A stretch of 64,000 nucleotides of DNA from a virus. The position numbers were made by a program, and so were the translations under genes. Position 1 is the stretch's first letter. Each line of letters starts with the position of its first letter. Below the pieces are notes generated by a model, which worked only from the letters and a program-made list of their open reading frames with translations, was not told the origin of the DNA and searched no databases. The stretch is taken from the IMG/VR virus record IMGVR_UViG_3300046168_000070, positions 32,001 through 96,000 of that record; one strand, written 5' to 3'. Positions 6,910-54,135 of the stretch are shown here, in pieces.

Positions 6910-6915
6910 TTACAC
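6910..6915 (-). promoter_or_regulatory. GTGTAA motif (putative late promoter) before tail L
   Basis: GTGTAA-8 nt-ATG(6901). Confidence 0.65.
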
Positions 6916-7661
6916 TATAGTTTAAAATTATAAGTTATTGAAATTCCTTGTTTTATATTATTTATTCTATGCCACCAAAACCTAGGTATATTTAAACTTT
7001 GGTTTTCATTTAATATTATTATATTTTGTTTTATATTATTTTTAATTAAAATTTTTGAAATCTCTGTCTTAGAATACATGGCTCCAGAATGATCTAAATC
7101 TAAATTTTCTATTAATTCATTGTATTGAGGGCTAATTAACAATACCTCTTTGCTGCCACTCACAACACTTAACAAAGAATGAGCTATTGGTTTTTTATAG
7201 AAGTTTTCTTTATGAATCTGCTTAAGGGTTCTGTCGATTTTATAGCTATAGGAATCGTAATGTAAAGGAGTGGTAGTACCTTTCCCTCCCCACCATAATG
7301 ATATATCTCCTACTTTACCAAAATTATACTTATTAATAATTTCTTTTTCTAATTTTAAAATTTTCTCAGGTTGTACAAATCCAAAAGGATTTTCTGAACG
7401 CAGGTAATATTTGTTATTTTTTTTGTTTATATATTCTTTAACATATTGTTCTATAGTTATCTCTATACGATTTATTTCTTGCAAATTTGATAACTGACCT
7501 CCCTCTACTATCTCTGGTACAATAACTTTAAGGTCTCCATAATCTTTTAATATTTTATCAACGTTGATAATTTCACTCAATCCAAAATCATGACTTAAAA
7601 CAAATGGTTGATTTTTTTTAAACAAATGTGTTATATTATCAGTATTTTTAACATTTAACAT
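6915..7661 (-). CDS. JmjC/cupin-like 2-oxoglutarate Fe(II) oxygenase
   Basis: LWWGGKGTTTPLHYD (HxD), SGSK, IPRFWWHRINN (distal His). Confidence 0.85.
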   Translation of the reverse strand: MLNVKNTDNITHLFKKNQPFVLSHDFGLSEIINVDKILKDYGDLKVIVPEIVEGGQLSNLQEINRIEITIEQYVKEYINKKNNKYYLRSENPFGFVQPEKILKLEKEIINKYNFGKVGDISLWWGGKGTTTPLHYDSYSYKIDRTLKQIHKENFYKKPIAHSLLSVVSGSKEVLLISPQYNELIENLDLDHSGAMYSKTEISKILIKNNIKQNIIILNENQSLNIPRFWWHRINNIKQGISITYNFKL

Positions 7662-7664
7662 ACT

Positions 7665-7976
7665 TTATGTTAATCTATTTAATATTTTCTTCAATACAAA
7701 AGATTGGTTATTGTAATTAATTAATTCTATCTTCAAGTTACTTTTTCGGCGCGGGCCTATATAAAAACCTTGAACTTCGTCTCTGCTTACTATAGCGTCA
7801 ACAAAATCATATGAATTATTTTGCTTCAGCCAAGACCAATACAAATCAATCTCCTCTTCTTGGCATTCTATTAATAAATTTTTATTTAAAAAACATTTTA
7901 CATATAAACTTAGGTCTCTAAAACAGTATACTTGACTAGGCGGAGCCGTCAAACTACCATCTACAATTAAATCCAT
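7665..7976 (-). CDS. Hypothetical protein
   Basis: 103 aa ORF preceded by GTGTAA-N8-ATG. Confidence 0.7.
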   Translation of the reverse strand: MDLIVDGSLTAPPSQVYCFRDLSLYVKCFLNKNLLIECQEEEIDLYWSWLKQNNSYDFVDAIVSRDEVQGFYIGPRRKSNLKIELINYNNQSFVLKKILNRLT

Positions 7977-7984
7977 ATTTTTTT

Positions 7985-7990
7985 TTACAC
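7985..7990 (-). promoter_or_regulatory. GTGTAA motif
   Basis: GTGTAA-8 nt-ATG(7976). Confidence 0.65.
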
Positions 7991-8056
7991 TTAAACAACT
8001 TAAAAATTTTTTCGAACAAATTTAAAATCATAGTGGACGATATACAAAAATAATAC

Positions 8057-8085
8057 TTGACAAATTACTTAATATGCATTATGAT
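8057..8085 (+). promoter_or_regulatory. sigma70 promoter (leaderless)
   Basis: TTGACA-17-TATGAT, ATG +7. Confidence 0.85.
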
Positions 8086-8092
8086 CATAAAC

Positions 8093-8398
8093 ATGAATAC
8101 TGAAAATAAATCAAAAACTTCTACTGAGTGGTCTTCCAGAGAAATGGGGGCACTTTGGCGCAAAAGCGGTAATACCGACTATTTAACAGGGCACTTCAAG
8201 ACTACAGAGCTTGGTCAAGAAGTCGTCCATAAAGTTGTTATTTTTGCTAACAAAAATAAAAAAGATAATGAAAGGGCTCCAGACTTAATCATCTATAAGT
8301 CTAAACCTAACAATGTTACAGAAAGTCAACAAGTTGAACCTCAAGCAGTAGCAGCTTCTGTAGGCTCTGAAGATGAAGTCCCTGATAACTTGTTTTAA
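8093..8398 (+). CDS. Conserved phage protein, DUF736-like with acidic tail
   Basis: GALW...YLTG...VVIFANK.KK..RAPDLIIY pattern; ATG 7 nt after a -10 box. Confidence 0.55.
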   Translation: MNTENKSKTSTEWSSREMGALWRKSGNTDYLTGHFKTTELGQEVVHKVVIFANKNKKDNERAPDLIIYKSKPNNVTESQQVEPQAVAASVGSEDEVPDNLF

Positions 8399-8399
8399 A

Positions 8400-8405
8400 G
8401 TGTAA
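8400..8405 (+). promoter_or_regulatory. GTGTAA motif
   Basis: GTGTAA-11 nt-ATG(8417). Confidence 0.5.
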
Positions 8406-8416
8406 ATACTTTTATT

Positions 8417-9520
8417 ATGAATACTTATGGTTTACTAAGCTCGAGCTCTACTTTATCTCAATCGTCTAGCGAAAACTCTTTTAGAAGTTTATCTAAGAAA
8501 GCTTTTAATGCAAAACCTTTGAATGAAGCTATCTCGGAGCTTAGCCAAATCATAATGCATAATGCAATATGTGCTCAAAACCATATTAAATTTTGTGCCC
8601 AAAATAACATTAAACTATATTCTATCTTCAACGACTTAATTCCTTTATTGCATGATGATTCGATCCCTTGCTCCATTAAAGATCTCGCTGATTATGAATC
8701 AATAATAAAAGAACTTAAAAAAATAGGAATTATAGCTAGAAAATTTAATGTTAAAATTTGTGTCGAGTTAAGAAAGCAAGTTCTATTATCAGGCACAGAA
8801 ACAACTATTAAAAAATCTTTAAATTTAATTAATTTATGGTCTACAATTTTTGATTTATTTGAGCTAGATCAAGGATTGGAATCACCGATTATTATACAGG
8901 TGAATAATTCTGTTAATGAGTCGGAAGAGCTAAAATTAAAAAACGTAATTGATAAATTTTATAATTCTTTTGAAAACCTACCAGAATCTTCTCAATCAAG
9001 AGTTTCAGTTACAAACGAAAAAGAAGGTTGCTGGAATTGTCAAAATTTATTTAAATGGCTTCATCTTTATTGTGGTGGAGAATATGGTAAGTTTTTTCCT
9101 TTAGTTTATAACAACTTAAATCACAAATTAAACCCTTCTGTTATTGGAGGGAAAGAAGTTTCTGATAAGCAGAATGTCGAAGCTTTTAAACACACTTGGC
9201 CAGAAAATAATACACCTTGCTTCTTTTGGGATGAAGAACCTTTAGATGATGCTTTTTCGAAAGAAATACCGTCTTTTGGAAAGGACATAGGGTGGATATG
9301 TTGCGGTATTAATAGCGATCAGAATATTTTTCAAATGAAAGGTGTCGTCATAAAAGATGAAAACCTTAATCTTAGCAGTTTTGATGACTTGCTCTCAGTT
9401 AAAGTTGAGATTGACGATAGCGAGATTAACGAAACAGAAATTGATATTGCTCATAAAAAGATTAAAGAAGCTCTTGAAACTAAAGGTGGTAGCGGCTTCA
9501 ACTCGATATACGGGTTCTAG
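8417..9520 (+). CDS. Degenerate UV-damage endonuclease (UvsE)-like TIM-barrel protein
   Basis: N...QNHIKFCAQNNIKLYSIFNDLIP and ELKKIGIIARKFNVK resemble UvsE, but the HP/H/D-HH/H metal ligands are missing. Confidence 0.6.
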   Translation: MNTYGLLSSSSTLSQSSSENSFRSLSKKAFNAKPLNEAISELSQIIMHNAICAQNHIKFCAQNNIKLYSIFNDLIPLLHDDSIPCSIKDLADYESIIKELKKIGIIARKFNVKICVELRKQVLLSGTETTIKKSLNLINLWSTIFDLFELDQGLESPIIIQVNNSVNESEELKLKNVIDKFYNSFENLPESSQSRVSVTNEKEGCWNCQNLFKWLHLYCGGEYGKFFPLVYNNLNHKLNPSVIGGKEVSDKQNVEAFKHTWPENNTPCFFWDEEPLDDAFSKEIPSFGKDIGWICCGINSDQNIFQMKGVVIKDENLNLSSFDDLLSVKVEIDDSEINETEIDIAHKKIKEALETKGGSGFNSIYGF

Positions 9521-9534
9521 ATAAGTTTTTGAAT

Positions 9535-10566
9535 ATGGCAAAACCTTTAATAGATTTTGATTTAATCAGATTAAAAATTTCCCTCAGAGATGAAAATTTG
9601 TCTCATGATTATCAAAAATTAGATCATCAAAAAATAGCTTCACTTATTACGCCTTATTGTATTCAGTTTAAAAATGACGACATTAAAAGAAGATATATAG
9701 AATTATTTAATCATCTTTGTGGGACTTTAGAATATTTATTTAAAGTTAAAGTTATTACGCCCCACAAGTTTTTGAAAATAACTGAAAAATATGTAGTTGA
9801 AGATTACAGACTTATTATAAATACTCCTGATCATTATGAAATTAGACATCTAAATCTGAACCCAAGAAATTATTTATTTTACCAAACTGGAAACAGACAA
9901 GAATTAATTAGTTGCCCCCAATCTGATAGTTTTATGCATGAAGAGTATCTAACAGACTTCCGACAATTATTTAATCAGCCTGACCAGATTACCTACTTTA
10001 CTTACTTACCTCAAAAAATTTCTTTGAATGAAATTTGCATAACAAAGAATTATGCAATTATATCCACGGCACTTGAGAAGCAATATAAAAACATAAAAAA
10101 AGAATTATCAGATTTTTTAAGATTAAAAATCATAACTTTTCGATCTCCCGATAATTCGACAGATATCACAAAGTATTTTAGGTCAATTGATTCCGCGCCA
10201 TCTCTAAATATTTCAGAATCTTTCAGCGTTAATAACAACAGTAAATTAATTTACGCAGAAACAGGAATACAAGACACAGATTCTAAAATTAAATTAGTTA
10301 TTGATGAAGTCAATAAAATAGATAATACAACTACAATAAAATTTAAAAACCCTCCAAATAATAAATTAATTAATTATTTAGACTTTTCTATGCTCGATGG
10401 AAGTTTTTTATTTCCGTTGTATGATGAGATTGCATATGAAAATAAATATTATCTTGCCGAACATTTCCCACAAAACTTTTTTCTCAGCGCAATGCATCCA
10501 GACCTTGACTTAGTGAACAAAAATGGTGTTAATTTTGCAAACATGATTTCTATATCAATGATATAA
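9535..10566 (+). CDS. Hypothetical protein
   Basis: ~343 aa ORF, no motif recognised. Confidence 0.7.
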   Translation: MAKPLIDFDLIRLKISLRDENLSHDYQKLDHQKIASLITPYCIQFKNDDIKRRYIELFNHLCGTLEYLFKVKVITPHKFLKITEKYVVEDYRLIINTPDHYEIRHLNLNPRNYLFYQTGNRQELISCPQSDSFMHEEYLTDFRQLFNQPDQITYFTYLPQKISLNEICITKNYAIISTALEKQYKNIKKELSDFLRLKIITFRSPDNSTDITKYFRSIDSAPSLNISESFSVNNNSKLIYAETGIQDTDSKIKLVIDEVNKIDNTTTIKFKNPPNNKLINYLDFSMLDGSFLFPLYDEIAYENKYYLAEHFPQNFFLSAMHPDLDLVNKNGVNFANMISISMI

Positions 10567-10579
10567 AATTATTTTTTTA

Positions 10580-10608
10580 TTGACATTTTAATACTTTTAA
10601 AATATAAT
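10580..10608 (+). promoter_or_regulatory. sigma70 promoter (leaderless)
   Basis: TTGACA-17-TATAAT, ATG +8. Confidence 0.9.
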
Positions 10609-10616
10609 CTATATAT

Positions 10617-10820
10617 ATGAAAATTGAAAACAACTCAAACTCTACTAAAAGAGGAAGAAAAAAAGGCTCTACATCTTTCACTCATTTAACTTATAAAGAC
10701 TTAGGTAAATTTGTTGGCGCCGAAACTTTGGTTCCTGTTCATAAGTCGTGGCTAGAACAATTAGGTTTTGATATCTATACTAAAGAACAAATCGAAAAGT
10801 ACACTCAAAAAAAGCTTTAA
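10617..10820 (+). CDS. Small basic protein with AT-hook-like RGRKKG; paralog of 37287..37508
   Basis: KRGRKKGSTSF..LTYKDL..FVG....V.V.KSWLE.L; own sigma70 promoter. Confidence 0.6.
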   Translation: MKIENNSNSTKRGRKKGSTSFTHLTYKDLGKFVGAETLVPVHKSWLEQLGFDIYTKEQIEKYTQKKL

Positions 10821-10825
10821 TAATT

Positions 10826-10831
10826 GTGTAA
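10826..10831 (+). promoter_or_regulatory. GTGTAA motif
   Basis: GTGTAA-12 nt-ATG(10844). Confidence 0.45.
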
Positions 10832-10843
10832 CAAATACTTACA

Positions 10844-11263
10844 ATGTCTAAAATTTTACTTGCAACAATCTTTTTTTATTCAATTGGCTGCTCCAGTTCA
10901 ATCACAAAAATCCATAAAGGGCAAAATAATGAACTCGTCAGAGAATTCGACCCGCCGATCATCAGAGAAATTGGAGAAGCTGGAGACGCTCTTAAAGAGT
11001 CGGTCCCTGTGCGAGTAAAGCTTTATCACATGCCTTTAGTCAGTGGTAGCAGACTTAAAATGATCAACAAGTGGGATCAGCCCCCACACATATATGAATA
11101 TGATTATGCCGAAGAACAGTATGTCGAAAATTATGTAACTTTCGATGTCGAAAATATTGAAAAATCTCAATCAATGAATATAATTGATTATATTAACTCA
11201 AACATAAAAGATCCTTCAGGCTTTCAACAAAATCATAAAAAACGATTTTTACTAGGCCTTTGA
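10844..11263 (+). CDS. Putative lipoprotein
   Basis: Short hydrophobic N-terminus ending SIGC. Confidence 0.5.
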   Translation: MSKILLATIFFYSIGCSSSITKIHKGQNNELVREFDPPIIREIGEAGDALKESVPVRVKLYHMPLVSGSRLKMINKWDQPPHIYEYDYAEEQYVENYVTFDVENIEKSQSMNIIDYINSNIKDPSGFQQNHKKRFLLGL

Positions 11264-11264
11264 T

Positions 11265-11747
11265 ATGGATAAAAACCCAACCCCATTCTCCGTGTTTCAA
11301 GATTTAGCAGAAAAAAAAGGATATAGACCTAAAAGAGCCACCACTTCTTTAAAAAAAGAAAATGTGCAATTTCTATTTCAAACGCCGACCCATAAAGATA
11401 TTGAGGTAGATTTAAAAACTAAAAAACGTTTTAAAAATAAATCTTTTGATAAATGGATTTGGATTGAATTTGCAGACAAGCATGGCAGAAAAGGATGGGT
11501 TTATGGTAGGGCGAAATTTATCGCTTTCGAAACAGCAGACTCTTTTATTCTAGTAAATAGATCTGAGCTTGCCGAATTTTTACAGAGAACAAATGTAGCT
11601 CGCTTTGATCTCCCTTTCGTAGATCAACCTTGGAAGGCTAAATATAGAGTCTTCAGAAGACCTCAGACAAAAGAAACTTTGACTCAAATCAAAACGCATG
11701 ATTTATTAAAATTAAAATCTGTACAAGTTTGGAAAAAATATGAGTAA
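11265..11747 (+). CDS. PD-(D/E)XK-like nuclease-fold phage protein; paralog of 33077..33529
   Basis: VDLK...WIWIEF...G.KGW..G.A.FIAFE....FILV.R.EL. Confidence 0.5.
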   Translation: MDKNPTPFSVFQDLAEKKGYRPKRATTSLKKENVQFLFQTPTHKDIEVDLKTKKRFKNKSFDKWIWIEFADKHGRKGWVYGRAKFIAFETADSFILVNRSELAEFLQRTNVARFDLPFVDQPWKAKYRVFRRPQTKETLTQIKTHDLLKLKSVQVWKKYE

Positions 11748-11913
11748 TTTATTAGAAGTCGCGCTTTTTAATGTGTGGCATTTTTTTGGAACTATTGTAT
11801 TAATTATTACTATTGGATTAGCAATATCATTACCAGTGAGTGTTTACTTTAGGAATAAACAGCTACAATCATCAAACTTATTAAAAATAATCAAATCAAA
11901 ACTATATGAATAA
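11740..11913 (+). CDS. Small membrane protein
   Basis: 57 aa hand-translated ORF with one hydrophobic helix, overlapping both neighbours. Confidence 0.5.
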   Translation: MSNLLEVALFNVWHFFGTIVLIITIGLAISLPVSVYFRNKQLQSSNLLKIIKSKLYE

Positions 11914-12094
11914 TCAAGATAAATTCTATGTTGTAACACGAAATGGTCGTAGAGTAGAAGAGAAAGACTATTGGACTAAAGACAGAGCGCTTAAGAGAGC
12001 AGATTCTCTTATAACTACTTTAAAAAAATGGAAAGATAAAGACAGGAATAAAGTAGAAGTAGTAGAAACTGAAAAGCCTCATTTAATTAAGTGA
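11906..12094 (+). CDS. Hypothetical protein
   Basis: 62 aa ORF in the operon. Confidence 0.6.
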   Translation: MNNQDKFYVVTRNGRRVEEKDYWTKDRALKRADSLITTLKKWKDKDRNKVEVVETEKPHLIK

Positions 12095-26762: not shown

Positions 26763-26768
26763 GTGTAA
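26763..26768 (+). promoter_or_regulatory. GTGTAA motif before DUF1549 gene
   Basis: Intergenic; ATG 27 nt downstream. Confidence 0.45.
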
Positions 26769-26795
26769 TTTAATCATAATTGTCTATTGATTGTT

Positions 26796-29066
26796 ATGAA
26801 AATTTTAATCTTATTGTTTTTATCTTCAATTCTCTGTTTTGGGGATACGCTATATTTTAATAACGGAAAAAATTTGAAAGGCGATATTGTAGAGGCGAAT
26901 GCTACACATGCGTTAATTAAAAGATCAAGTGATCTGCAATTATTCAGGATTTCAATTGATTCTTTAACAAAAGACAACCAAGCTTATATTAAAAATAATT
27001 TTCCACCGAGTCATGAAGCTTTGCCTAAATTTAAAAGACCATTATCTGATAGAGATTTAAAAACTCATGCTTATTATATTGATAGCTTAATTGAAGCAAA
27101 ACTCAGAGGGTATAATCTTAGGCCAAATAAGGAGGTCGATGATGCTATATATTTACGTAGAGCATATCTTAAAATTATCGGGAGGACGCCTTCTTTAGCA
27201 GAAGTAAACTCTTTTTTTGATGATAAAGATAAAAATAAAAGATCAAAATTAGTTGATCAGTTATTAGGTAGTGAAGGATATGTAAGTCACTGGTTTAATT
27301 TTTGGGCGGATATATTAAGAATTAAAGATAGGTTAACCAATAGAATATCTGGAGTGCCTTATAAGAATTATGTAAAAGAGTTTATATCAAATAACAGACC
27401 ATACGATGAATGGGTTAGAGAAATGTTATCCTCATCAGGCTCTCTATGGATTAAAGGCAACGAAGGAGTAAGTTATTTTGCTCGTGATGTCAATATGCCT
27501 CTTGATAGCATGGCTAACACAGTACGTATTTTTTTAGGCACAAGCCTCGAGTGCGCCCAATGCCATGACCATCCTTTTGATCGTTGGACTCAAAAACAAT
27601 TTTACGAAATGGCTGCATTCACAAGTGGCTCGACTAATTTGAGAACAAAAAGTCCAGAAAATTTAAGCGTCTTAAATAGATTAGCGAGAGATGAAAGAAG
27701 AAAATTAGAGCAGTCCGATCAACCTCAAAAATCTAGACAGCTACAAAATAGCATAAGAGATATCCAAGATATTTTGCAAACTGGATTAACGAGTTTAGGT
27801 AACGGAAAGATCAGTTTGCCTAAAGATTATCAGTATGATAATGCAAAACCTAATGAAGCTTTACTAGGGAAAACGATTTTCGGTAAAGAGGTAGATATTA
27901 AAACTGTTGCTCCAAATGCAGGTTCTAGGGAAATTTATGCTAATTGGTTGGCGTCTGAATCAAATCCAAGATTTACAGCTGTTATTGTAAATCGCTTGTG
28001 GAAGGAAGTTTTTGGATTAGCTTTAATAGAGCCAATTGATAATATGTTCGATGACACTCTTGCTACCGACCCAAAATTGCAATTACATCTCGAAAAAGTC
28101 ATGGTTGCCTTAAATTATGATTTAAGAGAGTTTTTAAGAATATTGTATAACACTAAAACATTCCAAAAAGAGTCTGTAACCAGAGATGTAATACCTAAGG
28201 ATAATAAAGATCAATCTATGCCTGTAGAAGTTGAGTGGATTATCGCAGGGCCAAATACCAAAGCTCAGTCTAAAGGAGCTGTCCCTTATTTTTATCAAGG
28301 GCCGATATTAGAAAGAATGAGTGGGGAGCAAATTTGGGATTCTTTAGTAAATTTAACATTTGATAATATAGATTCTAGAAAATTAGAGCAAAATACAAAA
28401 GGTTACGATCAATTTCAAACTCTTTCAGCCATGAGTGGAGAAGAATTATTTGAAGATATAATGGCTAAAATCAATAAAACCGAAAAGCCTAAAGCTGCAA
28501 GTAAATCAAAATTTGGTGAGCCGATAAATACTGATTGCCCTATCAAGCCTGGAAGAGCAATCGACCCAACATTATTAGCTCTCAATGAGAACGGTGAAAC
28601 TTTGGCATTTTGCTGTGAATCTTGTGTTGATAAATACAAATCTCAAAAGAAAGCTAGAGAGCAAGAGTACAAGCAGAATTTTGTCAAAGATAGAAATTCA
28701 GTTAGAGCTTCCGAACTATCTTCTCCCGCTCCGATTGGTCATTTAATCAGAGAGTTTGGCGGCTCAGATAGAGAGCAGATCGAAAACGCAAACAAAAGCG
28801 CTTCAGCGACACAAGTATTAAATTTATTAAATGGGTTCGTTGAAACAAGGTTATTGAAAAATAAAAACTTTGAAGTTATTAAAGCAATTGAATCTCAAAA
28901 GTCGTTAAGTGATAAAATAACAGTAGGTTATAAATATATATTAAACCGAGAGCCTACTTCTAAAGAATTAAGGATATTTACTGATAATTTAAAAAATACG
29001 AAAGATGCATATAAAGAAATAATATGGGTATTAATTAATAGTCATGAATTTATGTTTGTTAGGTAA
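26796..29066 (+). CDS. Secreted DUF1549/DUF1553 (PSD1/PSCyt2-type) protein with SHD1-like N-domain and YHS-like insert
   Basis: Signal peptide; YLRRAYLKIIGRTPS, W.D.LR, FLGTSLECAQCHDHPFDRWTQKQFYEMAAF, NPRFTAVIVNRLWKEVFG..L.EP.D, Q.L.LLNG, WVLINSHEF. Confidence 0.9.
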   Translation: MKILILLFLSSILCFGDTLYFNNGKNLKGDIVEANATHALIKRSSDLQLFRISIDSLTKDNQAYIKNNFPPSHEALPKFKRPLSDRDLKTHAYYIDSLIEAKLRGYNLRPNKEVDDAIYLRRAYLKIIGRTPSLAEVNSFFDDKDKNKRSKLVDQLLGSEGYVSHWFNFWADILRIKDRLTNRISGVPYKNYVKEFISNNRPYDEWVREMLSSSGSLWIKGNEGVSYFARDVNMPLDSMANTVRIFLGTSLECAQCHDHPFDRWTQKQFYEMAAFTSGSTNLRTKSPENLSVLNRLARDERRKLEQSDQPQKSRQLQNSIRDIQDILQTGLTSLGNGKISLPKDYQYDNAKPNEALLGKTIFGKEVDIKTVAPNAGSREIYANWLASESNPRFTAVIVNRLWKEVFGLALIEPIDNMFDDTLATDPKLQLHLEKVMVALNYDLREFLRILYNTKTFQKESVTRDVIPKDNKDQSMPVEVEWIIAGPNTKAQSKGAVPYFYQGPILERMSGEQIWDSLVNLTFDNIDSRKLEQNTKGYDQFQTLSAMSGEELFEDIMAKINKTEKPKAASKSKFGEPINTDCPIKPGRAIDPTLLALNENGETLAFCCESCVDKYKSQKKAREQEYKQNFVKDRNSVRASELSSPAPIGHLIREFGGSDREQIENANKSASATQVLNLLNGFVETRLLKNKNFEVIKAIESQKSLSDKITVGYKYILNREPTSKELRIFTDNLKNTKDAYKEIIWVLINSHEFMFVR

Positions 29067-29428
29067 TCCCATCTATTATATTTAAAAAAATAAATCATAT
29101 CATCTTTTATATAAATCCAACCCCATTTCTCTGTATAAAAATACCCTTTATAGCTTGGAGCATTATATATCCATCCTAATTTTTCAGAATACAACCAACT
29201 TCTAGAAATAGATTTTTTGTAAGTTCCATAAACTCTCCCCAAAGTTTTCATTGTGAACCACAAGCCTTTCGGTTTTTTACCGCATCTTGCCATCCATTCG
29301 CCAAGATCTAACGGTTGAGTAGATTTAGCTTGATTTTTGCACCAATCGCAATTATCTAGAAAATCTTTTCTTTCCACCCTTGCTTCTAGACAAATATATA
29401 TTAATATAAAAAGAAGCGAAAACCTCAT
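29042..29428 (-). CDS. Small putative secreted protein with W.Y....GW.Y repeats
   Basis: Hydrophobic N-terminus, WLYSEKLGWIY / YFYTEKWGWIY; preceded by GTGTAA-N8-ATG. Confidence 0.6.
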   Translation of the reverse strand: MRFSLLFILIYICLEARVERKDFLDNCDWCKNQAKSTQPLDLGEWMARCGKKPKGLWFTMKTLGRVYGTYKKSISRSWLYSEKLGWIYNAPSYKGYFYTEKWGWIYIKDDMIYFFKYNRWDYLTNINS

Positions 29429-29436
29429 ATATTGTA

Positions 29437-29442
29437 TTACAC
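29437..29442 (-). promoter_or_regulatory. GTGTAA motif
   Basis: GTGTAA-8 nt-ATG(29428). Confidence 0.65.
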
Positions 29443-29465
29443 TTGTGTTGATTTTTCTTTAAAAT

Positions 29466-29471
29466 GTGTAA
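29466..29471 (+). promoter_or_regulatory. GTGTAA motif before DUF1501 gene
   Basis: GTGTAA-10 nt-ATG(29482). Confidence 0.55.
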
Positions 29472-29481
29472 TAATAATATT

Positions 29482-30774
29482 ATGAACTTAAATACAATTG
29501 ATGAATTAGGGAGAAGAGAATTTATAGCGCATGCCGCAAAAGCATGCTTCGGAGTAGGGCTTATGCCGATGGCAGGAGCTTATATTAACAATACAGTGAG
29601 CGCTCTTGAGCCTAGTACTAGAGTTCCGACAGCTAGGCATGTCATTTATTTAAATATGTCAGGAGCGATGTCGCATCTTGACACATTTGCCCCAAAGCCT
29701 GACGCTCCTGATATTCAAGGGCCTACTAAATCAATTGCAACAAGCGCTGATGGAGTTATTTTATCCGAAAATCTACCAAAAACAGCGAAACTAATGCATC
29801 TTGGGTCAATTATCAAAACAATGAATACTAGTCAAGGAGCCCACATGCAAGCAAGTTATTTAATGCACACTAGTTATCTTAAGAGGGGCACAATTGTGCA
29901 TCCTACATTCGGGAGTTGGGTGTCAAAGCTTTCAGGTTCAATGAATAAAACAATACCTAGCAATGTTAAGATTGGAGGTGGAGGAGGCGGAGCTGGCTTT
30001 CTAGAGTCTAAATACGGCGCTCTTCCTATTAACAACCCTTCCTCAGGTCTAGCTAATAGTAAAATGGCTTCGTATTTAGATCATGAGCATTTTCAAAGCA
30101 GAATATCTATTGCCGAGCAATTGAATCAAAATTTTTCTACAGAATTTCCATTAAAACAAGTAAGAGCTTACAGTGACTTATATAAAGACGCAATAAAATT
30201 AATGAATAGTAATGATCTAAATGCTTTTGATATCACTAAAGAGCCAGCATCTGCAAGTGATCTTTATGGAAACACTAACTTCGGTAAAGGTTGCTTGTTA
30301 GCTAAAAGGCTAGTTGAGCATGGTGTTAGGTATGTAGAAGTTACGCGAGGAGGTTGGGATACTCATGATAATAACTTTGAAAGAGTTGCTGCAAATTGTG
30401 CTGATATCGATCAAGCTTTAAGCGGACTTCTTATTGATTTAGACAGAAGAGGGCTTTTATCAGAGACTTTGGTTGTATTAACCTCTGAATTTGGCAGAAC
30501 GCCAAACATAAATGGAAGAGACGGGAGAGACCATTGGCCTTATTGCTTCACAGCTTTTCTCGCAGGAGGTGGAGTGAAAGGTGGATTTACTTATGGTGAG
30601 ACAGACAAAACAGGCAGATCTCCTGTTGAAGGAAAACCTATCAAGCCAGAAGATTTGAATGCTACTATAGCTCATACCCTTGGTTTATCTTTAAATAATT
30701 ATCAATATTCCCCGTCAGGAAGACCTTTTACTATAGCCCATAAAGGCGAGCCTTTGTTTGATATTTTATCTTGA
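29482..30774 (+). CDS. DUF1501 protein with twin-arginine signal
   Basis: GRREF Tat motif, VIYLNMSGAMSHLDTF.PKP, FGKGCLLAKRLVEHGVRYVEV, GGWDTH, SEFGRTP, GRDHWP, AGGGVKGG, SGRP. Confidence 0.93.
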   Translation: MNLNTIDELGRREFIAHAAKACFGVGLMPMAGAYINNTVSALEPSTRVPTARHVIYLNMSGAMSHLDTFAPKPDAPDIQGPTKSIATSADGVILSENLPKTAKLMHLGSIIKTMNTSQGAHMQASYLMHTSYLKRGTIVHPTFGSWVSKLSGSMNKTIPSNVKIGGGGGGAGFLESKYGALPINNPSSGLANSKMASYLDHEHFQSRISIAEQLNQNFSTEFPLKQVRAYSDLYKDAIKLMNSNDLNAFDITKEPASASDLYGNTNFGKGCLLAKRLVEHGVRYVEVTRGGWDTHDNNFERVAANCADIDQALSGLLIDLDRRGLLSETLVVLTSEFGRTPNINGRDGRDHWPYCFTAFLAGGGVKGGFTYGETDKTGRSPVEGKPIKPEDLNATIAHTLGLSLNNYQYSPSGRPFTIAHKGEPLFDILS

Positions 30775-32062: not shown

Positions 32063-33076
32063 ATGAACAATAAATTCCTATCTATTCTTGAATATTCTTT
32101 AAATAAGTTTATGCCATATGTTTTAATTAGTTTTTTAGTATTTTTTGAATTTGGATTTTATAAAGTTCAGCCATATATAATTATGGGGCTTTTGTGTTTT
32201 TTAGACAAACATTCTTTTAGAGTAGGTTATGCCGTAGCTCTTTGCGAAGAAAGGGGAGTTGATCTTGAGAAATGGGACAAATAAAAGTGTAATCTTATTT
32301 GTGCAAGAGAGAATAATAAATTTGCTATTAACTATAATCGGGTGTTGTGTAGTTTTTTATATTTTTAAACAGAATCACGAAATAACATATTTAAAAGATA
32401 CCATTAAAATACAGCATGAAGCAATAGAAAGACAAAATGTTTTAATTGATTTTCAAAAAAGAATCATGTATCCAAATAATCCGCAAAATGAATTTCAGCC
32501 AACTTATAAATAAGCAATCTTACAAAAAGATATTTAATAAACTATATTCCAGCCAACTTAAATACGAAGAACCTAAAAGTATTAGAGAAATCGATGTAGA
32601 AGCTAGAAGTGCATGGGATTTCTTATTACAAGCTCAACCCCAAAGATCAAAGCACGAAATCCATGTTGGATTCTGTAAAGATTTCCAAAGCGAAGATTTT
32701 CCTTGTGCAGAGCTTCGTGATACCAAAAGCAAGCTTTTTCATAATTTCAATGAAGCTCCTTGGCAAGAAGTCTTGGGATCAAATATAGTAAATTCGTCAA
32801 GTTTGTCAGATGAAGAAGTTTGTGCTACAATTTTTTGGTTCTTGACTATGAACTCTTTTAAGCCAAATAAAGAACTTAATCATGCTTAGAAAATTTTGGC
32901 TTATATGGGCTAGAACTCTCGATCATAGAGTGGGAAGAACAGACAATGATGAACCTGATATACCTATATTATCATTAAGAGACGCTCAAATAAGTCTTTT
33001 ATTAAGAAGTTTAATTGTAATAGTTAATTTAATAACTTGTTTTTTCATAGTCGCAAATATAATAAAAAATTGGTAA
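32063..33076 (+). other. Run of four small hypothetical genes (32063..32284, 32301..32513, 32488..32889, 32882..33076), several with TM helices
   Basis: ORF track, with starts adjusted to promoter context. Confidence 0.6.
32287..32292 (+). promoter_or_regulatory. GTGTAA motif
   Basis: GTGTAA-8 nt-GTG(32301). Confidence 0.6.
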
Positions 33077-33790: not shown

Positions 33791-33796
33791 GTGTAA
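33791..33796 (+). promoter_or_regulatory. GTGTAA motif before SpeD-like/Ate-like operon
   Basis: GTGTAA-8 nt-GTG(33805). Confidence 0.6.
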
Positions 33797-33804: not shown

Positions 33805-34194
33805 GTGGAACATAAACATCTTTTAGTTAATGCTACTTTCGAGCAGACCCCATTTACGAATACAGATTTCACAAATAAATGGCTTTTAAAAATTGTTAAA
33901 TTAATTGACATGGAAGTTTTGCATGAACCTGTCTCGGTGAGATGTGATGAAAAAAATAACGAGGGCGTTAGTGGGTTCTGTTTAATAACAACAAGTCATT
34001 TATCTTTGCATTCTTGGGAGAAAAAAACTCCGAATTTATTACAACTTGATGTCTATAGTTGTAAAGATTTTGACCCTCATTTAATTGAGTATGAAATTAA
34101 AAAATTTCATCCAATATCTCTTGGGTTAAAATTCCTAGATAGAAGAGTACGAAATACTAAAGGATGGTCAATGTTTGATGAAAGCAAGGCATGA
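33805..34194 (+). CDS. Pyruvoyl-dependent decarboxylase proenzyme, SpeD-like (variant cleavage site TTSH)
   Basis: GVSGFCLITTSHLSLHSWE...LQLDVYSCK.F; GTG start 8 nt after GTGTAA. Confidence 0.85.
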   Translation: MEHKHLLVNATFEQTPFTNTDFTNKWLLKIVKLIDMEVLHEPVSVRCDEKNNEGVSGFCLITTSHLSLHSWEKKTPNLLQLDVYSCKDFDPHLIEYEIKKFHPISLGLKFLDRRVRNTKGWSMFDESKA

Positions 34195-39929: not shown

Positions 39930-40163
39930 CTATTGGTTTATTTTCTCAAATATTTTAACTACATCTTGTCTTCTATCTTCTAAAAGTCTGCTAGTTTGAA
40001 CCCATCTTTCAGCATCCCTCGCCCCATTCTTTGCTAAATCGACCTCAATGTCTCTTAATTTGTTAGACATTTTTTCTAATTTCATGCTTTCCCTTTTCAA
40101 AAAGAAAGCGATCACAGATACCATAACTCCCATTGCGATCATCAATATTTCGTTTATTTCCAT
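39930..40163 (-). CDS. Single-TM coiled-coil protein, holin/XhlA-like architecture
   Basis: MEINEILMIAMGVMVSVIAFFLKR + coiled coil; GTGTAT-N8-ATG upstream. Confidence 0.45.
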   Translation of the reverse strand: MEINEILMIAMGVMVSVIAFFLKRESMKLEKMSNKLRDIEVDLAKNGARDAERWVQTSRLLEDRRQDVVKIFEKINQ

Positions 40164-40171: not shown

Positions 40172-40177
40172 ATACAC
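40172..40177 (-). promoter_or_regulatory. GTGTAT variant motif
   Basis: GTGTAT-8 nt-ATG(40163). Confidence 0.55.
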
Positions 40178-40219: not shown

Positions 40220-41230
40220 ATGTCACAACAAATACTAGGCTTAACTTGCATTAGCGAGCAACTCAAAGAGAAAGACAAAGTTAAATATTCCTTTAGGACT
40301 ATGACTCGCAAAAGATTTAATGACTTGTGTAGTTCTCAAGGCAGGGATGAAGCTATCAATCAATTATCTGAAAGAATTTTGCACAATGTTGTTGTTACTC
40401 AATATATTGTCAATCATTGCCATGCCTCGGACATTAGGCATTATCGTCTTAGCTCTGCTCTTTTCCCTCTCCTTACCGATCAGACTTTGGAAATTTCTAT
40501 GGCAGAATTGCCTCACAAAGCAAGAATCGAAAAAGGGTTAGAGTTTATAGGTTTAATCGCCAAACGCTTTAATATATCAATAGGATCGCATCCCGATCAG
40601 TTTAATGTTCTTGCGTCTCCCGATAGGGATAAAGTTAATCGCACAATAAATGAACTGAATTTTCAAGCAAGAGTTCTCGATATGGTCGGATTACCTCAAG
40701 ACCATACTGCTCCAATGAATATACATATTAATTATTCGCCCAAAGCGGATGAGACGCTAGAAGTTGTTGCTACTAGATTCTTTCGCAATCTTTCTATGTG
40801 CGATAGAGGTGTTTACAATCGAATAACTATTGAGAACGAAGACAAAGGTTTCTTTAATGTAGATAACTGCATTAAATTTAGCGAGTATTTATTTGAAACA
40901 TTCAACGCAAATATTCCTGTTTGTTTTGACAATTTACATCATACTTGCAATCCATCAGAGGAATCATCTATTAAATGGCAAGCCGAGCGTTGTGCATATA
41001 CATGGGTTAATAATGGAGAAGGAGACAATCATTTTATTTCTCCTGTCTTTCATTGGTCAGAGGGTAAACCCGAAAAGCCTCGTTCTCATGCAGACTATGT
41101 CGCATTCGGTAATTTTCCACCACATATTGCTATTGACCCTCAATATCCTGCAATTTTCGAGGTAGAAACAAAGGCAAAGGATAAAGCTATTAAACTCTTA
41201 CAAAAACAAATGGCAGGGGGGTTAAGCTAA
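40220..41230 (+). CDS. uvsE: UV-damage endonuclease UvsE/UvdE
   Basis: LGLTCIS, HYRLSSALFP, SHPDQFNVLAS, MNIH, IENED, FDNLHH, FHWSE, HADY, EVETKAKDKA. Confidence 0.93.
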   Translation: MSQQILGLTCISEQLKEKDKVKYSFRTMTRKRFNDLCSSQGRDEAINQLSERILHNVVVTQYIVNHCHASDIRHYRLSSALFPLLTDQTLEISMAELPHKARIEKGLEFIGLIAKRFNISIGSHPDQFNVLASPDRDKVNRTINELNFQARVLDMVGLPQDHTAPMNIHINYSPKADETLEVVATRFFRNLSMCDRGVYNRITIENEDKGFFNVDNCIKFSEYLFETFNANIPVCFDNLHHTCNPSEESSIKWQAERCAYTWVNNGEGDNHFISPVFHWSEGKPEKPRSHADYVAFGNFPPHIAIDPQYPAIFEVETKAKDKAIKLLQKQMAGGLS

Positions 41231-46374: not shown

Positions 46375-47041
46375 AAACAATACATAATACTAAAAACTGC
46401 AATTACAGAAGGTTCTTGCACAAAAAACTAAAGAATGGAAAAATTAGTGGTCGCTTTTATAAGTTTCTTTGCAGAAGTCATCCGTATCGCATTACAACTC
46501 GTAACATCGAGTTAATTGTAAGAGAGATTCTTGATGGTAAGATGACAGAAGACAAAGGTATTCGCCTACTAAAACAAGATACTAGCGAGCTAAAGATGCA
46601 GAAAGAGATGTATAAATCAAATATAGAGTATGCTAAAAAAGTTAAAACATAAATTAAAACAAATATACGAACTCTTCGCTTGTATTGGAATTTTCATGAT
46701 CATTATGTATTTATTAGTAGTGTATATATTAACAGGAAAAGATTAAATAATGAAAGAAATAATAATTAAAGTTTTAAAAAATTTTGCTGACTTACAAGTA
46801 AACCTAGAATCAGATTCGGCAAGAGAAATAATTGCGTCAGAGATAGAACTTAATTTAATAAAAAATAATGTTAATTTAAGTATTGATTCGTTGGAGCAAA
46901 TTTGCGAGGATAAAGGTACTGATGATTGTTGTGGGGGCAACTGCCATCAATGATCTGCTTAAACTATAAAGGCTTGAAGATTATAGAAGACCTTCACAAG
47001 TTGCGAGCAGAAACAAAAATCCATAAGCAGAAAAAAAAGTC

Positions 47042-49080: not shown

Positions 49081-49475
49081 TTTATCATGGACTATACAAG
49101 AGAAATAATATATGGATTTAAACTAATAGATCGTCTAATATCTAATTCAATAGATGATTTATCGAAAGAATGTGCGAGTGAAATTGACGATAGATACAAT
49201 TTGCTCTTAGAATACGAAGAATTTTTTAAATATGACGAGAAAAGATTTAATTATGAAATCAGAAACTTTCTTATATGGATGTGCGATGTAATTTTACTTG
49301 ATACTTTATAATATGAAATTAAAAGAAGCAATCGAATTAGTCTTAAATGAAGCAGAATCTTCAGCTTTAGGAGAAAATAACCAAGAGGTGCTTGACGCAG
49401 TAGAGATGGTTAATAAATTCTATCGAGTTTTCGGGCATCATTTTCAAAATTTTACTTTGCCCGAAGAATTAAATC

Positions 49476-49504
49476 TTGACAAAGATTAAAAAACCTGTCA
49501 GTAT
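49476..49504 (+). promoter_or_regulatory. sigma70 promoter (leadered)
   Basis: TTGACA-17-CAGTAT, AAAGGA leader, ATG 49536. Confidence 0.7.
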
Positions 49505-50260
49505 TAAATAATTAACAATTAACAAAGGAAGAAAAATGAATTATTTTACAAATACAAATGTCCGTTGGAAAACATGGTCACCCGAAAATGTTATTTTAAA
49601 AGCAATCAATTGGTAAAGAAGGTTTTACCCTCTGAACATATTTTGTCATGGAAGAGTAAAGGTGATCGTGACCGAAAAATGTGCGAGATGACAGGTTGCG
49701 AGGCAACTCAAGCGAATCAATTTGGTGGACAACCATATACATATTATACCAAAGAAAACTATAAAGGAATCATGGTTCAATTAAAAGATGTAAAAGATGA
49801 TTTTCCATCTGCTAATATTGACTTTATTGATTGGACAGAGAGAAAAGATAGTGTCGGCAACATGAAAGGTCATCTTGATATATTAGTTTATCTAAATGCT
49901 TTTCATCAACCTTGGCAATATGTTAAATGTCCTCAAACAGGAAATTGGGTCAGAAAAAGCACAGGTAATACTGCTCCATTACGAGAAGGTTATCGTATGT
50001 GTTATGGTGGACAAGGTGATGCCAATGCTTTAGACTTTGACGAATTCCATGAGATGATTCAAATAACAGAAATGATCAGAGATTTTCTTGTTGATGTTAT
50101 TATCCCCACAAAGAATGGCGAATTAGTTGAAGAAGATTTATTAGTAGCATGACTAATTTACCCGAAATTTTTTATGTTTTAAATATAGTAACAGGATGCG
50201 TTTTCGTTTTACTTTTTCTCTTTTTTGTGATGAGTGGAGAATAATTATATAAAATTATAT

Positions 50261-50266
50261 GTGTAA
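50261..50266 (+). promoter_or_regulatory. GTGTAA motif
   Basis: GTGTAA-8 nt-ATG(50275). Confidence 0.65.
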
Positions 50267-50822
50267 TTATATATATGGAAGAGCGAGAAAAGGAGCTTAA
50301 AAATAAATTACATTTAGCGTGTAGACAGATTCAAGACCAACTGATTGGCTTTGAGGCACTAAAAGAATATTGTGATATAGATGAATTTCACATCAATAAG
50401 CTTAATGAAATTTTACTTGAATTAAATTTTGCTTATGATAGCTTACTTGAAAATAAAAATATTGATAAATTTCACTTATTTCAAAATAAATTTAAGAAAC
50501 TTTAGTAAGACATTATTATGTCTGCATTAGTTTATTTTTTACTCACTTTATATTTAATCAATTTAATATTTGCATTTATATCCGCCCTTATAGTTGTCAA
50601 GCAGGACGATAACCCAAACAAGAATAAAATGTCATCAAACAATAAAATAATAATGGACGATTACGATGCAGGTTTTGCAGATGCAACAAAACTAATGCAA
50701 GAAAAATTAGATGCAATGCTCTTTAAATACGAACTAATTCTCAAGGAATATGATTACATCGAAGAAGCAAGAGATGTTGCGTTGCTTGAAGAGGTTAAAC
50801 AAAAACTTTTCGAAAAATAGTG

Positions 50823-50851
50823 TTGACAAGTTGGTAGAACTTCATCATAAT
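50823..50851 (+). promoter_or_regulatory. sigma70 promoter (leaderless)
   Basis: TTGACA-17-CATAAT, ATG +7. Confidence 0.85.
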
Positions 50852-51842
50852 TATAGTCATGAAGTATCAAGCCGAAGCAAATGCAGTTTATGAAATGTTA
50901 TTTGATCTTGAGGATTTGGTTGATTTGCATCAAAGCAGGTTTTCGACCAATCAATTACGAGATATAATTTCATTTAAAAATAAAGTCAATCATTATCTTG
51001 GTCGGAGATTGCCATTGAAAGCCAAGAAGCAAGTAAAAGACTTAGACAAGTACATTCAACAATGTTTATATTATGCAAACTGAAATTATAGTTAAAGAAA
51101 AAAAATACAAGAACAGAAAGATAGTTTATGGGTTGTCGTCTCTGACCATGCCGAAAATCTTAATTTATTAACCCGCAGAAAAAGCCTTGATAGGGTTGAT
51201 CTCTTATGCTTGACTGATCTTGGTTTTAAAATAAAATACTTATGATAACAGAAACAGAAATACAAAATTTTCTTTATGAAATAGACGATCAACTAAGTGA
51301 CGATCAAATAAATTCGTTGGCACAAAAAATATTTAATAATCAAAAAATATTATTTAGTTTATTTGACAAAGTTTCGGATAAACCTTGCGTTTGTGGATTT
51401 TGGGGGGATAAATAATGAAAATACAACTAGGAATAAGAGGCAGTTCAGATAGCATAAATCATATCTTAATTAAAATAGATGATCTTATTTTAATGAATAA
51501 AGATAATTTATTTCTAGTAGGAAACGAAGGCAGAGATAATACAGGAAAAAATTTAGTTCAGTTATTAAATACTCTATCAAAAGATCACGAAATATCTGTA
51601 AGCGAGAATGTTGCAGAACAGATAGAGAGCGAATTGGACATAAAAAATAATCAAATTAAAAAATATATAAATTAAATAAATATGAAAAGAGGACAATCAG
51701 TTAATAAAGAAAAGATTTTATTGCAAATAATAGATCATTGCAAGGAACTTTTAAAAGACGAAAAATTTCTCATAAATAACGATTGGGAGACTGATGTTTT
51801 ATTACTTCACTCAGAGAAGTTTCTCAAACAAGAGAAAAAAAC

Positions 51843-51871
51843 TTGACATAAATTCTTGTCTCGTTTAGTAT
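51843..51871 (+). promoter_or_regulatory. sigma70 promoter (leaderless)
   Basis: TTGACA-17-TAGTAT, ATG +6. Confidence 0.8.
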
Positions 51872-52186
51872 TATACCATGAACACAACAGAAGCATTTCT
51901 AGCAAGTATTGAACAATCAATCTCTCATGCAGAGAAGATAGCGAACTCAATCCCCAAGAAGGGTCTTAATGTTTATCTTGACAAATCTACTATGGTCATG
52001 CAGACATTCAGCGATCCTAGTGCGTTTGAGTATGCCAAGAAGGTTACTGCAAGAGCAGGGCAATCAAGTTGTCTTCGCAATGTATTAGATGCAGGGGGCA
52101 GATTACAATAAAAGCATGATAAAAGACGCAGAATAATAGTTTTGACACTCAAATACTAACTTTTTATCAATAACACAATAAAATGC

Positions 52187-52215
52187 TTGACATATCATGC
52201 AAAATGAACTTGAAT
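52187..52215 (+). promoter_or_regulatory. sigma70 promoter (leaderless)
   Basis: TTGACA-17-TTGAAT, ATG +6. Confidence 0.6.
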
Positions 52216-52849
52216 AACGACATGGAAAAATTACCAACATACGAAGAATGGACAAAGGACATGGACTTAGAATCTCAAATAAAATTCTATTATGATGTTG
52301 ACATTGATAATTATTTAGGTGATCCTTGGCAAATAGTAGCAGAGATTGCAGAGGAATGTCCTAATTGGTTATCAGAGTTTAAAGCTAATTTTAAAGAATA
52401 TTTACAAGAGAGAGAATACATACAATGAAAGAATTGAAAGAAAAATTAAATAAAGTTATCTCCAAACAAGTTGAGATGGTAAATAAATATGGGTCAAATA
52501 CATTTCTCTACTTGCGACCATTATAGTTGGGATAAGGATATTTGGAATCATAGACATTCTATTGTTGACAAACTAATTGATCTAGGCTTTAATGTCGATA
52601 CTCAAATGAATTGGGGAGTATTAGATGTAACAATCACAAAGGAATTAAAACTATGAAAGTAACAAGTATTAGATATTTTGAAACAAACAAGGGAGTTGGT
52701 TATCAATGCAAAACTAATATTAAAGATGTGGAAATATGCAATGATGGCACAGGTGGAGCAACTTATGTAGATGGAGATTTAAAAAAATTAATTAAAGAAT
52801 ATACTGAATGGGATTTAGAAGATTTAATTGATCAATACGAAAATAACTC

Positions 52850-52878
52850 TTGACATCGCAACAAAAACACTTTAGATT
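52850..52878 (+). promoter_or_regulatory. sigma70 promoter (leaderless)
   Basis: TTGACA-17-TAGATT, ATG +6. Confidence 0.8.
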
Positions 52879-53311
52879 TATAGCATGAACATTAATTATA
52901 TATACGAAGATAATACTATTGAAGAAAAATTTTGGTACGATTCCTACACAGGAACTTATTGCTTGCATGATGAGAGTGGGAAGAGCCAATGGAGTTTACA
53001 GAAGATGAATTAATTACAGAAGGAATTTATTTAAATGAATATTGCTAAAGAATATAATGTAGAAATAGGTTTGACTCCAAGTGATATTCAAGCTATTCTC
53101 GATGGAGAAATGTCAACGCTTCACTTTTTACCAACTGATGATACCGATTACGAAGATAAGATTAGCGTTCATCTAAAGCCAATTAGTGAAGATGCAACTT
53201 TATCAGAGCAAATGAATTTAGTTGTTGACACATGGAATAAACCTGTTTAGAGCATCAACATATTAACAACTATATGTTTATAAAAAAGAAAAATATCGAC
53301 ATAACTTATTA

Positions 53312-53317
53312 GTGTAA
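53312..53317 (+). promoter_or_regulatory. GTGTAA motif
   Basis: GTGTAA-8 nt-GTG(53326). Confidence 0.65.
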
Positions 53318-53325
53318 TTAAATAT

Positions 53326-54135
53326 GTGAGTAGTGATCCAAATTTTCCATCTTCTTTACCTATTGCTCCTGCGAGAAATAGTTCTCTAGGATTTAATTAT
53401 GTATGGGATACTTTAAATTTACATTGGACTCCTAAACCCGAAAGTCAATATGACTTAGCTATTGGTCAAGCAAAAGAAAGTGTGAACAAGTTCGGTGCTT
53501 TACCTCAAATCACAGATAAGTCAGCAATTCAAACTATATGGGATGGAGTAACAGAATATGTATTTCCTAGTAATAGTGGCGAATCATTAATAATCACCTC
53601 TTCCAACGGAACGGATAATCAGTCTGTAATAGTTATGGGGTTGGATGAAAATTTTGAACAGCAATCTCAAGAAGTTAATCTTTCGGGCACAAGCGATGTA
53701 AATATACCAAGTACATGGACTAGAGTTTTTAGAGCTTATAATAATGGTTCTAGCGATTTCACAGGAGATGTCTCAATTAAAAGTAGTAATGGGGTTAATA
53801 CTTACGCAAAAATTTTATCAAATAATAATCAAACCTTAATGTGTGTTTATACGATACCTGCCAATTACACAGGAAAATTAGTGAAGTTTAATATATCTGC
53901 ACACAATGTTTCTTCATCAAATTCATTAAGTGCAGTCGTGCATTTAAAAACTAGAGAGTATGGAAAAGTGTTTAGGACTCGTAATGTTACAAGTTTTAGC
54001 GATATTTCTCCGACATCCAACCAATTGACTTTCCCTCTTGTTTTACAACCTAAAACTGATATTATTTTTAATAAAGTAAGTGCGAGTGCAACTTCGGGTA
54101 AAATAAATTGCGATTTTGACATCGCATTGAGTTAA
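53326..54135 (+). CDS. Conserved beta-rich phage protein, possibly virion-associated
   Basis: VNKFG...TIWDG, VFRAY, QTLMCVYTIPA, PKTDI motifs; GTGTAA-N8-GTG start. Confidence 0.5.
   Translation: MSSDPNFPSSLPIAPARNSSLGFNYVWDTLNLHWTPKPESQYDLAIGQAKESVNKFGALPQITDKSAIQTIWDGVTEYVFPSNSGESLIITSSNGTDNQSVIVMGLDENFEQQSQEVNLSGTSDVNIPSTWTRVFRAYNNGSSDFTGDVSIKSSNGVNTYAKILSNNNQTLMCVYTIPANYTGKLVKFNISAHNVSSSNSLSAVVHLKTREYGKVFRTRNVTSFSDISPTSNQLTFPLVLQPKTDIIFNKVSASATSGKINCDFDIALS

Follow-up and report, generated by a model that had tools for sequence, protein, structure and literature searches.

What is the role of a six-base word, GTGTAA, that recurs at a fixed distance before start codons in the genome of an uncultured marine phage? 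The question is raised by bases 32001-96000 of the 193,844-bp IMG/VR virus record IMGVR_UViG_3300046168_000070; this whole stretch of 64,000 nucleotides is called the window below. The original prediction took GTGTA(A/T) in the window for a phage-specific single-box promoter, giving leaderless or near-leaderless mRNAs and read by a phage sigma factor or RNA polymerase encoded outside it. Several independent lines of sequence evidence, described here, support the single-box promoter and its leaderless or near-leaderless mRNAs. We put at about 0.78 the probability of the following reading: GTGTAA defines a class of phage promoters, mostly leaderless, to which the host core RNA polymerase is redirected by a phage sigma factor, in a cascade running from host sigma to phage sigma to GTGTAA. 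The box itself is very probably a phage-specific promoter, and its reader is probably one of two sigma factors encoded by the phage, sigma1 and sigma2.

The box was followed in the whole phage genome (GC content 34%, rated complete in the IMG/VR record), in the complete genomes G001-G003, used as relatives for comparison, and in a wider set of 80 loci (1.03 Mb) that carry a homologue of sigma1. Among 50,697 cultured-phage records no match was found, either with 20 kb of the window (megablast) or with sigma1 (tblastn).

The box and its spacing

Counting GTGTAA at fixed spacings before start codons over the whole genome, a check that the original prediction had proposed, gave a strong peak over background spacings at exactly eight intervening nucleotides (N8). 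The 193,844-bp genome contains 58 copies of the word: 13 lie N8 before an ATG, 5 lie N8 before a GTG, and 12 lie at N9 to N12 before an ATG. Other spacings hold 0.72 copies on average, and the Poisson probability of the N8 peak is 1.2e-12. None of 11 scrambled hexamers showed a peak at N8. About 35 of the 58 copies (60%) are located at most 27 nt upstream of a gene, positions which represent approximately 1.8% of the sequence, and in every case the box is on the same strand as its target gene.

An unbiased count of 5-mers in the 30 nt preceding starts placed GTGTA at the top, with 31 occurrences for 2.2 expected; the Shine-Dalgarno-like word AAGGA formed a separate enriched class (25 seen, 6.4 expected). 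Within the window, 28 GTGTAW words were counted against 46.7 in shuffled sequences, and 12 of them are just upstream of starts. The scarcity of GTGTAW outside promoters was not used as evidence, since scrambling the word, with its composition unchanged, yields words that are about as frequent overall.

The peak is conserved in relatives, where it comprises 11 of the 50 copies in G002 and 9 of the 46 copies in G003. Over three genomes, N8 sites exceed background for GTGTAA (33 vs 2.4), GTGTAT (10 vs 2.3) and GTGTAC (3 vs 0.4), and every other single-base variant of the box is without an N8 peak. The 80 sigma1-homologue loci contain 114 copies of GTGTAW-N8-RTG; control spacings yield 15.6 each. 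The five GTG codons found at N8 in the phage are real starts: each is in frame with a long open reading frame (ORF), which it extends or matches. Literature searches on phage promoters and leaderless late promoters turned up no published description of a GTGTAA box.

Signs of action in transcription

An alignment of 33 sites on the box shows T at box+13 in 29 of them and, for the most part, a purine at box+14; of the 15 sites with an ATG at some distance other than N8, 11 have the T (P 0.0016). A pyrimidine at -1 followed by a purine at +1 is the preference of bacterial RNA polymerase start sites. This signature is tied to the box and not to the start codon, because the T at box+13 persists when the ATG is elsewhere. 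In the whole clade, a pyrimidine occupies -1 in 96 of 106 non-redundant sites. The base just before the start codon is a pyrimidine in all 18 N8 genes and in 27 of 30 genes with a sigma70-type promoter abutting the ATG; the proportion is 35% for genes led by a Shine-Dalgarno site, 51% for other genes and 50% for box genes with a farther ATG.

RNA polymerase would accordingly be expected at the purine located 9 nt past the last base of the box (box+9, which is box+14 in box-aligned numbering); a start at this base puts the box at -14 to -9, and GTGTA(A>T>C) would be the core, -10-type element of the promoter class. At most sites this purine would be the A or G of the start codon itself, and among sites with G at +1 the next two bases are TG in 5 of 7 cases. 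We infer from this geometry that the 5' end of most of these mRNAs coincides with the start codon. At the remaining sites a leader of 1-19 nt is predicted, the longer leaders carrying an AAGGA Shine-Dalgarno site.

The same layout is found for promoters of host type. Among TTGACA-N16-18-TATAAT matches, the distance between the -10 box and the ATG peaks at 6 (18 sites) and 7 nt (12 sites), and the peak is also seen in G002 and G003. Leaderless design seems general in this genome, because about 30 host-type promoters also abut ATGs. The GTGTAA box sits 1-2 bases farther upstream of the start than the -10 hexamer does. This sigma70-type leaderless class is visible in window 30771-62300 and genome-wide; one example has TTGACA at window 40185 and its ATG at 40220. 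For a few sigma70-type promoters the leader is longer, about 33 nt, and contains an AAGGA Shine-Dalgarno site; the RIIA/RIIB homologues at window 54804 and 57187 are examples.

The constant 8-nt interval between box and start codon also recalls Shine-Dalgarno spacing, and the box-led genes have no Shine-Dalgarno site of their own. The box might then work in RNA, either as a translation enhancer replacing the Shine-Dalgarno sequence or as an endoribonuclease site, cut 8 nt downstream to yield leaderless mRNAs. We consider this highly improbable. The conservation of T at box+13 without an ATG at N8 is already at odds with it, and on inspection GUGUAA is not complementary to the anti-Shine-Dalgarno CCUCC of 16S rRNA. 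The box also precedes a non-coding gene: the phage transfer-messenger RNA (tmRNA) gene (RF00023, 130 bits, full length; genome 29003-29400, plus strand, about 2.6 kb before the window) begins 26 nt after a box, and in the relative G003 exactly 8 nt separate a box from the G with which the mature tmRNA begins. A signal for translation would be pointless in front of such a gene, although a processing enzyme could also produce the 5' end of the G003 tmRNA.

The location of boxes relative to transcription units was then considered. At five divergent junctions the gap measures 39-67 bp and is occupied by two opposed boxes or, apart from a single box, by hardly anything; one opposed pair forms the palindrome TTACAC-TA-GTGTAA. 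Other divergent junctions between real genes mostly contain TTGACA/TATAAT promoters. Since divergent junctions must hold promoters, the presence of boxes in such short gaps supports a promoter role. Two further boxes follow terminators, in a crude scripted scan that found only 17 hairpins: the box at genome 148007 begins 3 nt past the T-run of a strong terminator downstream of a 395-amino-acid gene, and 23 nt separate a second terminator from a GTGTAT whose leader contains AAGGAAAGG. In both situations the boxes are at operon heads, where one does not expect a transcript from upstream.

At the distal site at genome 144288 (N27), the leader contains an AAGGA-type Shine-Dalgarno site, AAGGAAAGG, and this arrangement is kept in G002 and G003; distal sites thus add a normal Shine-Dalgarno site to the box, which an RNA-level role would not lead one to expect. 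In orthologues of G002 and G003, GTGTA(A/T/C) is kept and the flanks have diverged. In three orthologues (the ribonucleotide reductase (RNR) large subunit, the UvdE-like gene and a 64-amino-acid gene) a TTGACA/TATAAT promoter is found in place of the box, a substitution that again speaks for a promoter and against a signal in RNA. The pyrimidine/purine signature, the tmRNA target, the divergent gaps, the adjacency to terminators, the distal leaders with Shine-Dalgarno sites and the swapping of promoter classes all support the promoter reading, and this sequence evidence indicates that the box acts in transcription, not in translation.

Candidate readers and related promoters

The original prediction also expected a sigma factor or RNA polymerase gene outside the window. 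The first half of this expectation held, with two genes of the sigma-70 family; as for the second, neither a T7-like nor a multisubunit RNA polymerase was detected. Sigma1 (genome 108622-109338, plus strand) has 238 amino acids from its conserved Met, with a region 2 like that of extracytoplasmic function (ECF) sigma factors, a conserved region 4 and, between the two, four invariant cysteines. Its predicted fold matches the ECF sigmas SigH, SigL, SigW and SigE; when PDB sequences were searched with sigma1, as a single sequence and as a profile, only weak ECF region-2 matches came up. The gene overlaps (ATGA) the end of an ORF of about 114 amino acids encoding a zinc ribbon with two CxxC pairs, the pair of genes covering genome 108286-109338 (plus strand), and this ORF starts from a TTGAAT-N16-TATAAT leaderless promoter. 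Sigma2 (genome 175586-176182, minus strand, 198 amino acids) is similar to RpoD, sigma32 and sporulation sigmas in regions 2 and 4, its predicted fold matches sigma32/SigA, and its operon is headed by a sigma70-type leaderless promoter. The Sigma70_r4 family (PF04545) had no match in the genome. Homologues of sigma1 with 50-99% identity are present in at least 127 IMG/VR stretches, from which the 80 loci were fetched. Many of these homologues are without an ATG near the conserved N-terminus, which suggests that they use non-ATG starts.

In the cascade that we propose, sigma1 and sigma2 would be expressed from host-type TTGACA/TATAAT promoters by the host sigma, and one of the two would, most likely, redirect the host core RNA polymerase to the boxes, so turning on the GTGTAA units (tail, fibre, virion, tmRNA and auxiliary genes).

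Several points weigh against this reading. The TIGR02937 model, which spans regions 2 and 4, gives 40.7 bits for sigma1 and 35.9 bits for sigma2, below its curated cut-off of 42.9; PF04542 gives 24.4 bits for sigma1 in one search and 21.9 in another, also below the curated cut-off; predicted folds and profiles are nonetheless in accord. A -35 element was looked for twice and none is conserved, the only feature being A/T richness directly upstream of the box; over 106 sites no position from -45 to -8 relative to the box is conserved (at most 0.12 bits per position). Both sigma candidates nevertheless have a conserved region 4, and ECF sigmas, as well as gp36 of phage phiEco32, normally need -35 contacts. 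The box cannot be assigned to either sigma by presence or absence, because all complete relatives (G001-G003) carry both. Finally, the transcription start site is predicted from sequence geometry alone, and gene calls were crude (longest ORF, greedy). Visual inspection and a k-mer enrichment count, used to look for a third promoter class that might serve the second sigma, brought out no words other than GTGTA, AAGGA and A/T-rich ones.

Some of these points would suit a different reader. A phage factor that activates transcription or appropriates the sigma (as T4 MotA/AsiA or phiEco32 gp79) could bind at the box, or the box could be read by a primary or alternative sigma of the host, the phage sigma-like proteins acting elsewhere. 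The lack of a -35 beside the box despite region 4 in both phage sigmas and the uninformative presence/absence pattern are in agreement with this, and a shift of one base gives TGTAAT, a single mismatch from TATAAT. We nevertheless judge it unlikely. The box occupies the place of the -10 element, and between the box and the start there is no alternative hexamer of -10 type that would fit. The A(-11) of TATAAT is essential in sigma70 promoters, and the G of the box falls at this very position. No N8 peak was observed in 136 kb of contigs of Opitutales, the putative host (a small sample, GC 40-47%), and the two phage sigma genes would otherwise be left without an assigned promoter class.

It is more improbable still that the box is read by an unrecognised phage RNA polymerase, of a family that escapes both Pfam and PHROGs. 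Many large phage proteins do have no family match, and some phage polymerases typically use short single-box promoters. The genome gave no match to T7-type RNA_pol (PF00940), a weak negative because the PF00940 control matched nothing anywhere, nor to Rpb1 domain 2 (PF00623), which covers the catalytic domain, and a scan of large unannotated proteins revealed no polymerase domain. Moreover, the pyrimidine(-1)/purine(+1) rule and the position of the box match those of the sigma70-type promoters of the same genome, and two sigma genes are at hand.

If a phage sigma does read the box, the promoter sequence is new and its kind is already known, phage sigma-directed promoters without a -35 being exemplified by T4 late and phiEco32 middle/late promoters. 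In T4 late promoters the -10 sequence is TATAAATA, and the reader is gp55, acting together with gp33 and the sliding clamp. They share with the GTGTAA sites a -10-only box, the absence of a -35 and a scattered distribution before many late or structural genes, even inside clusters on the same strand; the use of a phage sigma with the host core polymerase would be a further likeness. They differ in sequence, and T4 late mRNAs have leaders and Shine-Dalgarno sites. T4 gp55 is without a region 4, whereas sigma1 and sigma2 each have one.

The middle/late promoters of phiEco32 read by gp36 have the consensus AATGTA centred at -11.5, with -11G as the first unpaired base; gp36 depends on contacts in the -35 region (-37G, -34A) and on a co-factor, gp79 (PMC12276001). 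Both systems have a single conserved hexamer with a TGTA core, and with a start at box+9 the centre of GTGTAA would likewise fall at -11.5. Under the proposed sigma reading, both would also be phage-specific and combine the host core with a small divergent phage sigma with sigma2-/sigma4-like domains, following early transcription by host sigma70. The register differs by one base, TGTA being at -13 to -10 here and at -12 to -9 in phiEco32, and the GTGTAA sites have no -35 conservation, in contrast to the essential contacts of gp36. In the phiEco32 literature consulted, no leaderless design like the one proposed here is described. gp36 and sigma1 are at most putative homologues: in the search with the predicted fold of sigma1, the gp36 complex 9m7y comes only in 29th place.

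A likeness to ECF promoters comes from the last four bases of the box, which with two A/T bases form GTAAWW at -12 to -7 if the start is at box+9. The -10 element of sigmaE (ECF group 4) is GTC/GTCAAA, and ECF promoters have a strong -35 (AAC) element. GTAAWW has the place and form of an ECF -10 element, in keeping with the ECF-like region 2 of sigma1, and PDB 5or5 is, by its title, an engineered sigmaE region 2 bound to GTAAAA. No AAC-core -35 was found about 16-17 bp upstream of the -10 element at GTGTAA sites. Other differences are the two further invariant bases needed here (GT, at -14/-13) and the four-cysteine insert between regions 2 and 4 of sigma1.

Leaderless transcripts are reportedly made from the middle and late promoters of Thermus phage P23-45 and from lambda PRM for cI. 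Phage transcripts in general have been said to be "often leaderless" (PMC5312081). As in P23-45 and lambda PRM, promoters here appear placed so that transcription begins at the start codon; the difference is that in this 194-kb genome dozens of genes conform to the rule, under promoters of both the host-type and the GTGTAA class. With transcription start and start codon so strictly coupled in two classes, one may ask what favours leaderless translation during infection. More generally, the box amounts to a set of promoter rules that can be tested in a clade of marine phages that is large, uncultured and apparently widespread. It would make transcription units and temporal classes predictable from sequence alone and would correct start codons, with five GTG starts and several extended ORFs predicted. 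A short box without a -35, together with small phage sigmas, could also supply orthogonal parts for synthetic biology.

Box-led genes, timing and host

All sites that had been listed for the window were correct on re-check, including the spacings of 8 and of 10-12 nt and the copy before the DUF1549 gene. On the minus strand, GTGTAA at 6910..6915 is located N8 before the ATG at 6901 of a minor tail protein gene (5699-6901, 400 amino acids; phrog_18, E 3.6e-43), and GTGTAA at 7985..7990, N8 before the ATG at 7976 of a 103-amino-acid ORF, heads the minus-strand unit of a divergent junction. On the plus strand, the box at 8400..8405 is N11 before the ATG at 8417 of the UvdE-like gene (367 amino acids), with T-A at box+13/+14, and the box at 10826..10831 is N12 before the ATG at 10844 (139 amino acids).

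The plus-strand box at 26763..26768 lies 27 nt before ATG 26796, or 18 nt before TTG 26787, of a DUF1549/DUF1553 gene (Pfam). The next two boxes form a back-to-back divergent pair in a 53-bp gap: 29437..29442 on the minus strand, N8 before the ATG at 29428 (128 amino acids), and 29466..29471 on the plus strand, N10 before the ATG at 29482 of a DUF1501 gene (Pfam, 430 amino acids). This pair had been correctly described; a second one, claimed at 40172/40185, does not consist of two GTGTAA boxes. There, a minus-strand GTGTAT variant (40172..40177, N8 before the ATG at 40163, 77 amino acids) faces the TTGACA-N17-TATAGT sigma70-type promoter of the plus-strand gene at 40220.

The other sites are all on the plus strand. 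The box at 32287..32292 is N8 before GTG 32301 (70 amino acids), which is in frame with a longer ORF, 32259-32513. The box at 33791..33796 abuts the upstream stop codon and is N8 before GTG 33805 of an S-adenosylmethionine (AdoMet) decarboxylase-like gene, which heads a set of four overlapping genes; this gene (33805-34191, plus strand, of the pyruvoyl type) owes its predicted GTG start to the box. A candidate GTGTAT at 46720..46725 lies 24 nt before ATG 46750, with a Shine-Dalgarno-like stretch, AGGAAAAG, in the predicted leader. GTGTAA at 50261..50266 is N8 before ATG 50275 (76 amino acids), and GTGTAA at 53312..53317 is N8 before GTG 53326 (269 amino acids, phrog_8198).

The phage encodes a DNA polymerase, RNR, RIIA/RIIB, PhoH, a ClpB-like ATPase, terminase, and tail and fibre proteins. 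Tail, fibre and virion genes are among the targets of the box, which suggests a late timing for box-led genes. Other targets are non-structural: the AdoMet decarboxylase-like gene, the UvdE-like gene, PhoH, RNR, the ClpB-like gene and small ORFs of the early region. Within the window, four boxes of the early-type region precede genes of this non-structural kind, so that "late" is only a tentative label for the class. As to the tmRNA genes, G002 and G003 likewise carry one, plus a tRNA-Thr(TGT). The tag peptide assigned by ARAGORN to the tmRNA of this phage looks atypical, ending in LLA; the tags of the relatives end in ALAA.

The DUF1501 protein of the phage, whose gene lies with the DUF1549/DUF1553 gene in window 26787-30771, is 71-79% identical to genes on contigs (up to 282 kb) of marine Opitutales/Opitutia metagenome-assembled genomes. 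Because of this likeness to genes of Opitutales (Verrucomicrobiota), a host in the Verrucomicrobiota is likely. In the few Opitutales contigs inspected, an AAGGA-type Shine-Dalgarno site precedes the homologous DUF1501 gene. A fuller picture can be drawn only tentatively, and we regard it as doubtful in its entirety: a widespread, uncultured clade of marine phages of about 180-205 kb, probably infecting Opitutales, in which nearly all units would be leaderless through two promoter classes. The second class would be served by an unusual sigma, ECF-like and equipped with a four-cysteine module of zinc type; this sigma would have no need of a -35 and would start transcription exactly on the initiation codon, in a host that uses Shine-Dalgarno sites.

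Two minor observations concern the record as a whole. Its ends (genome 1-843 and 193002-193844) repeat over about 840 bp, imperfectly. This points either to a terminal repeat or to overlapping assembly ends of a genome that is circular or permuted; the IMG/VR label is linear. Near the beginning of the genome, at 3569-6631 on the plus strand, is encoded a 1020-amino-acid protein with an FGE-sulfatase (sulfatase-modifying factor) domain.

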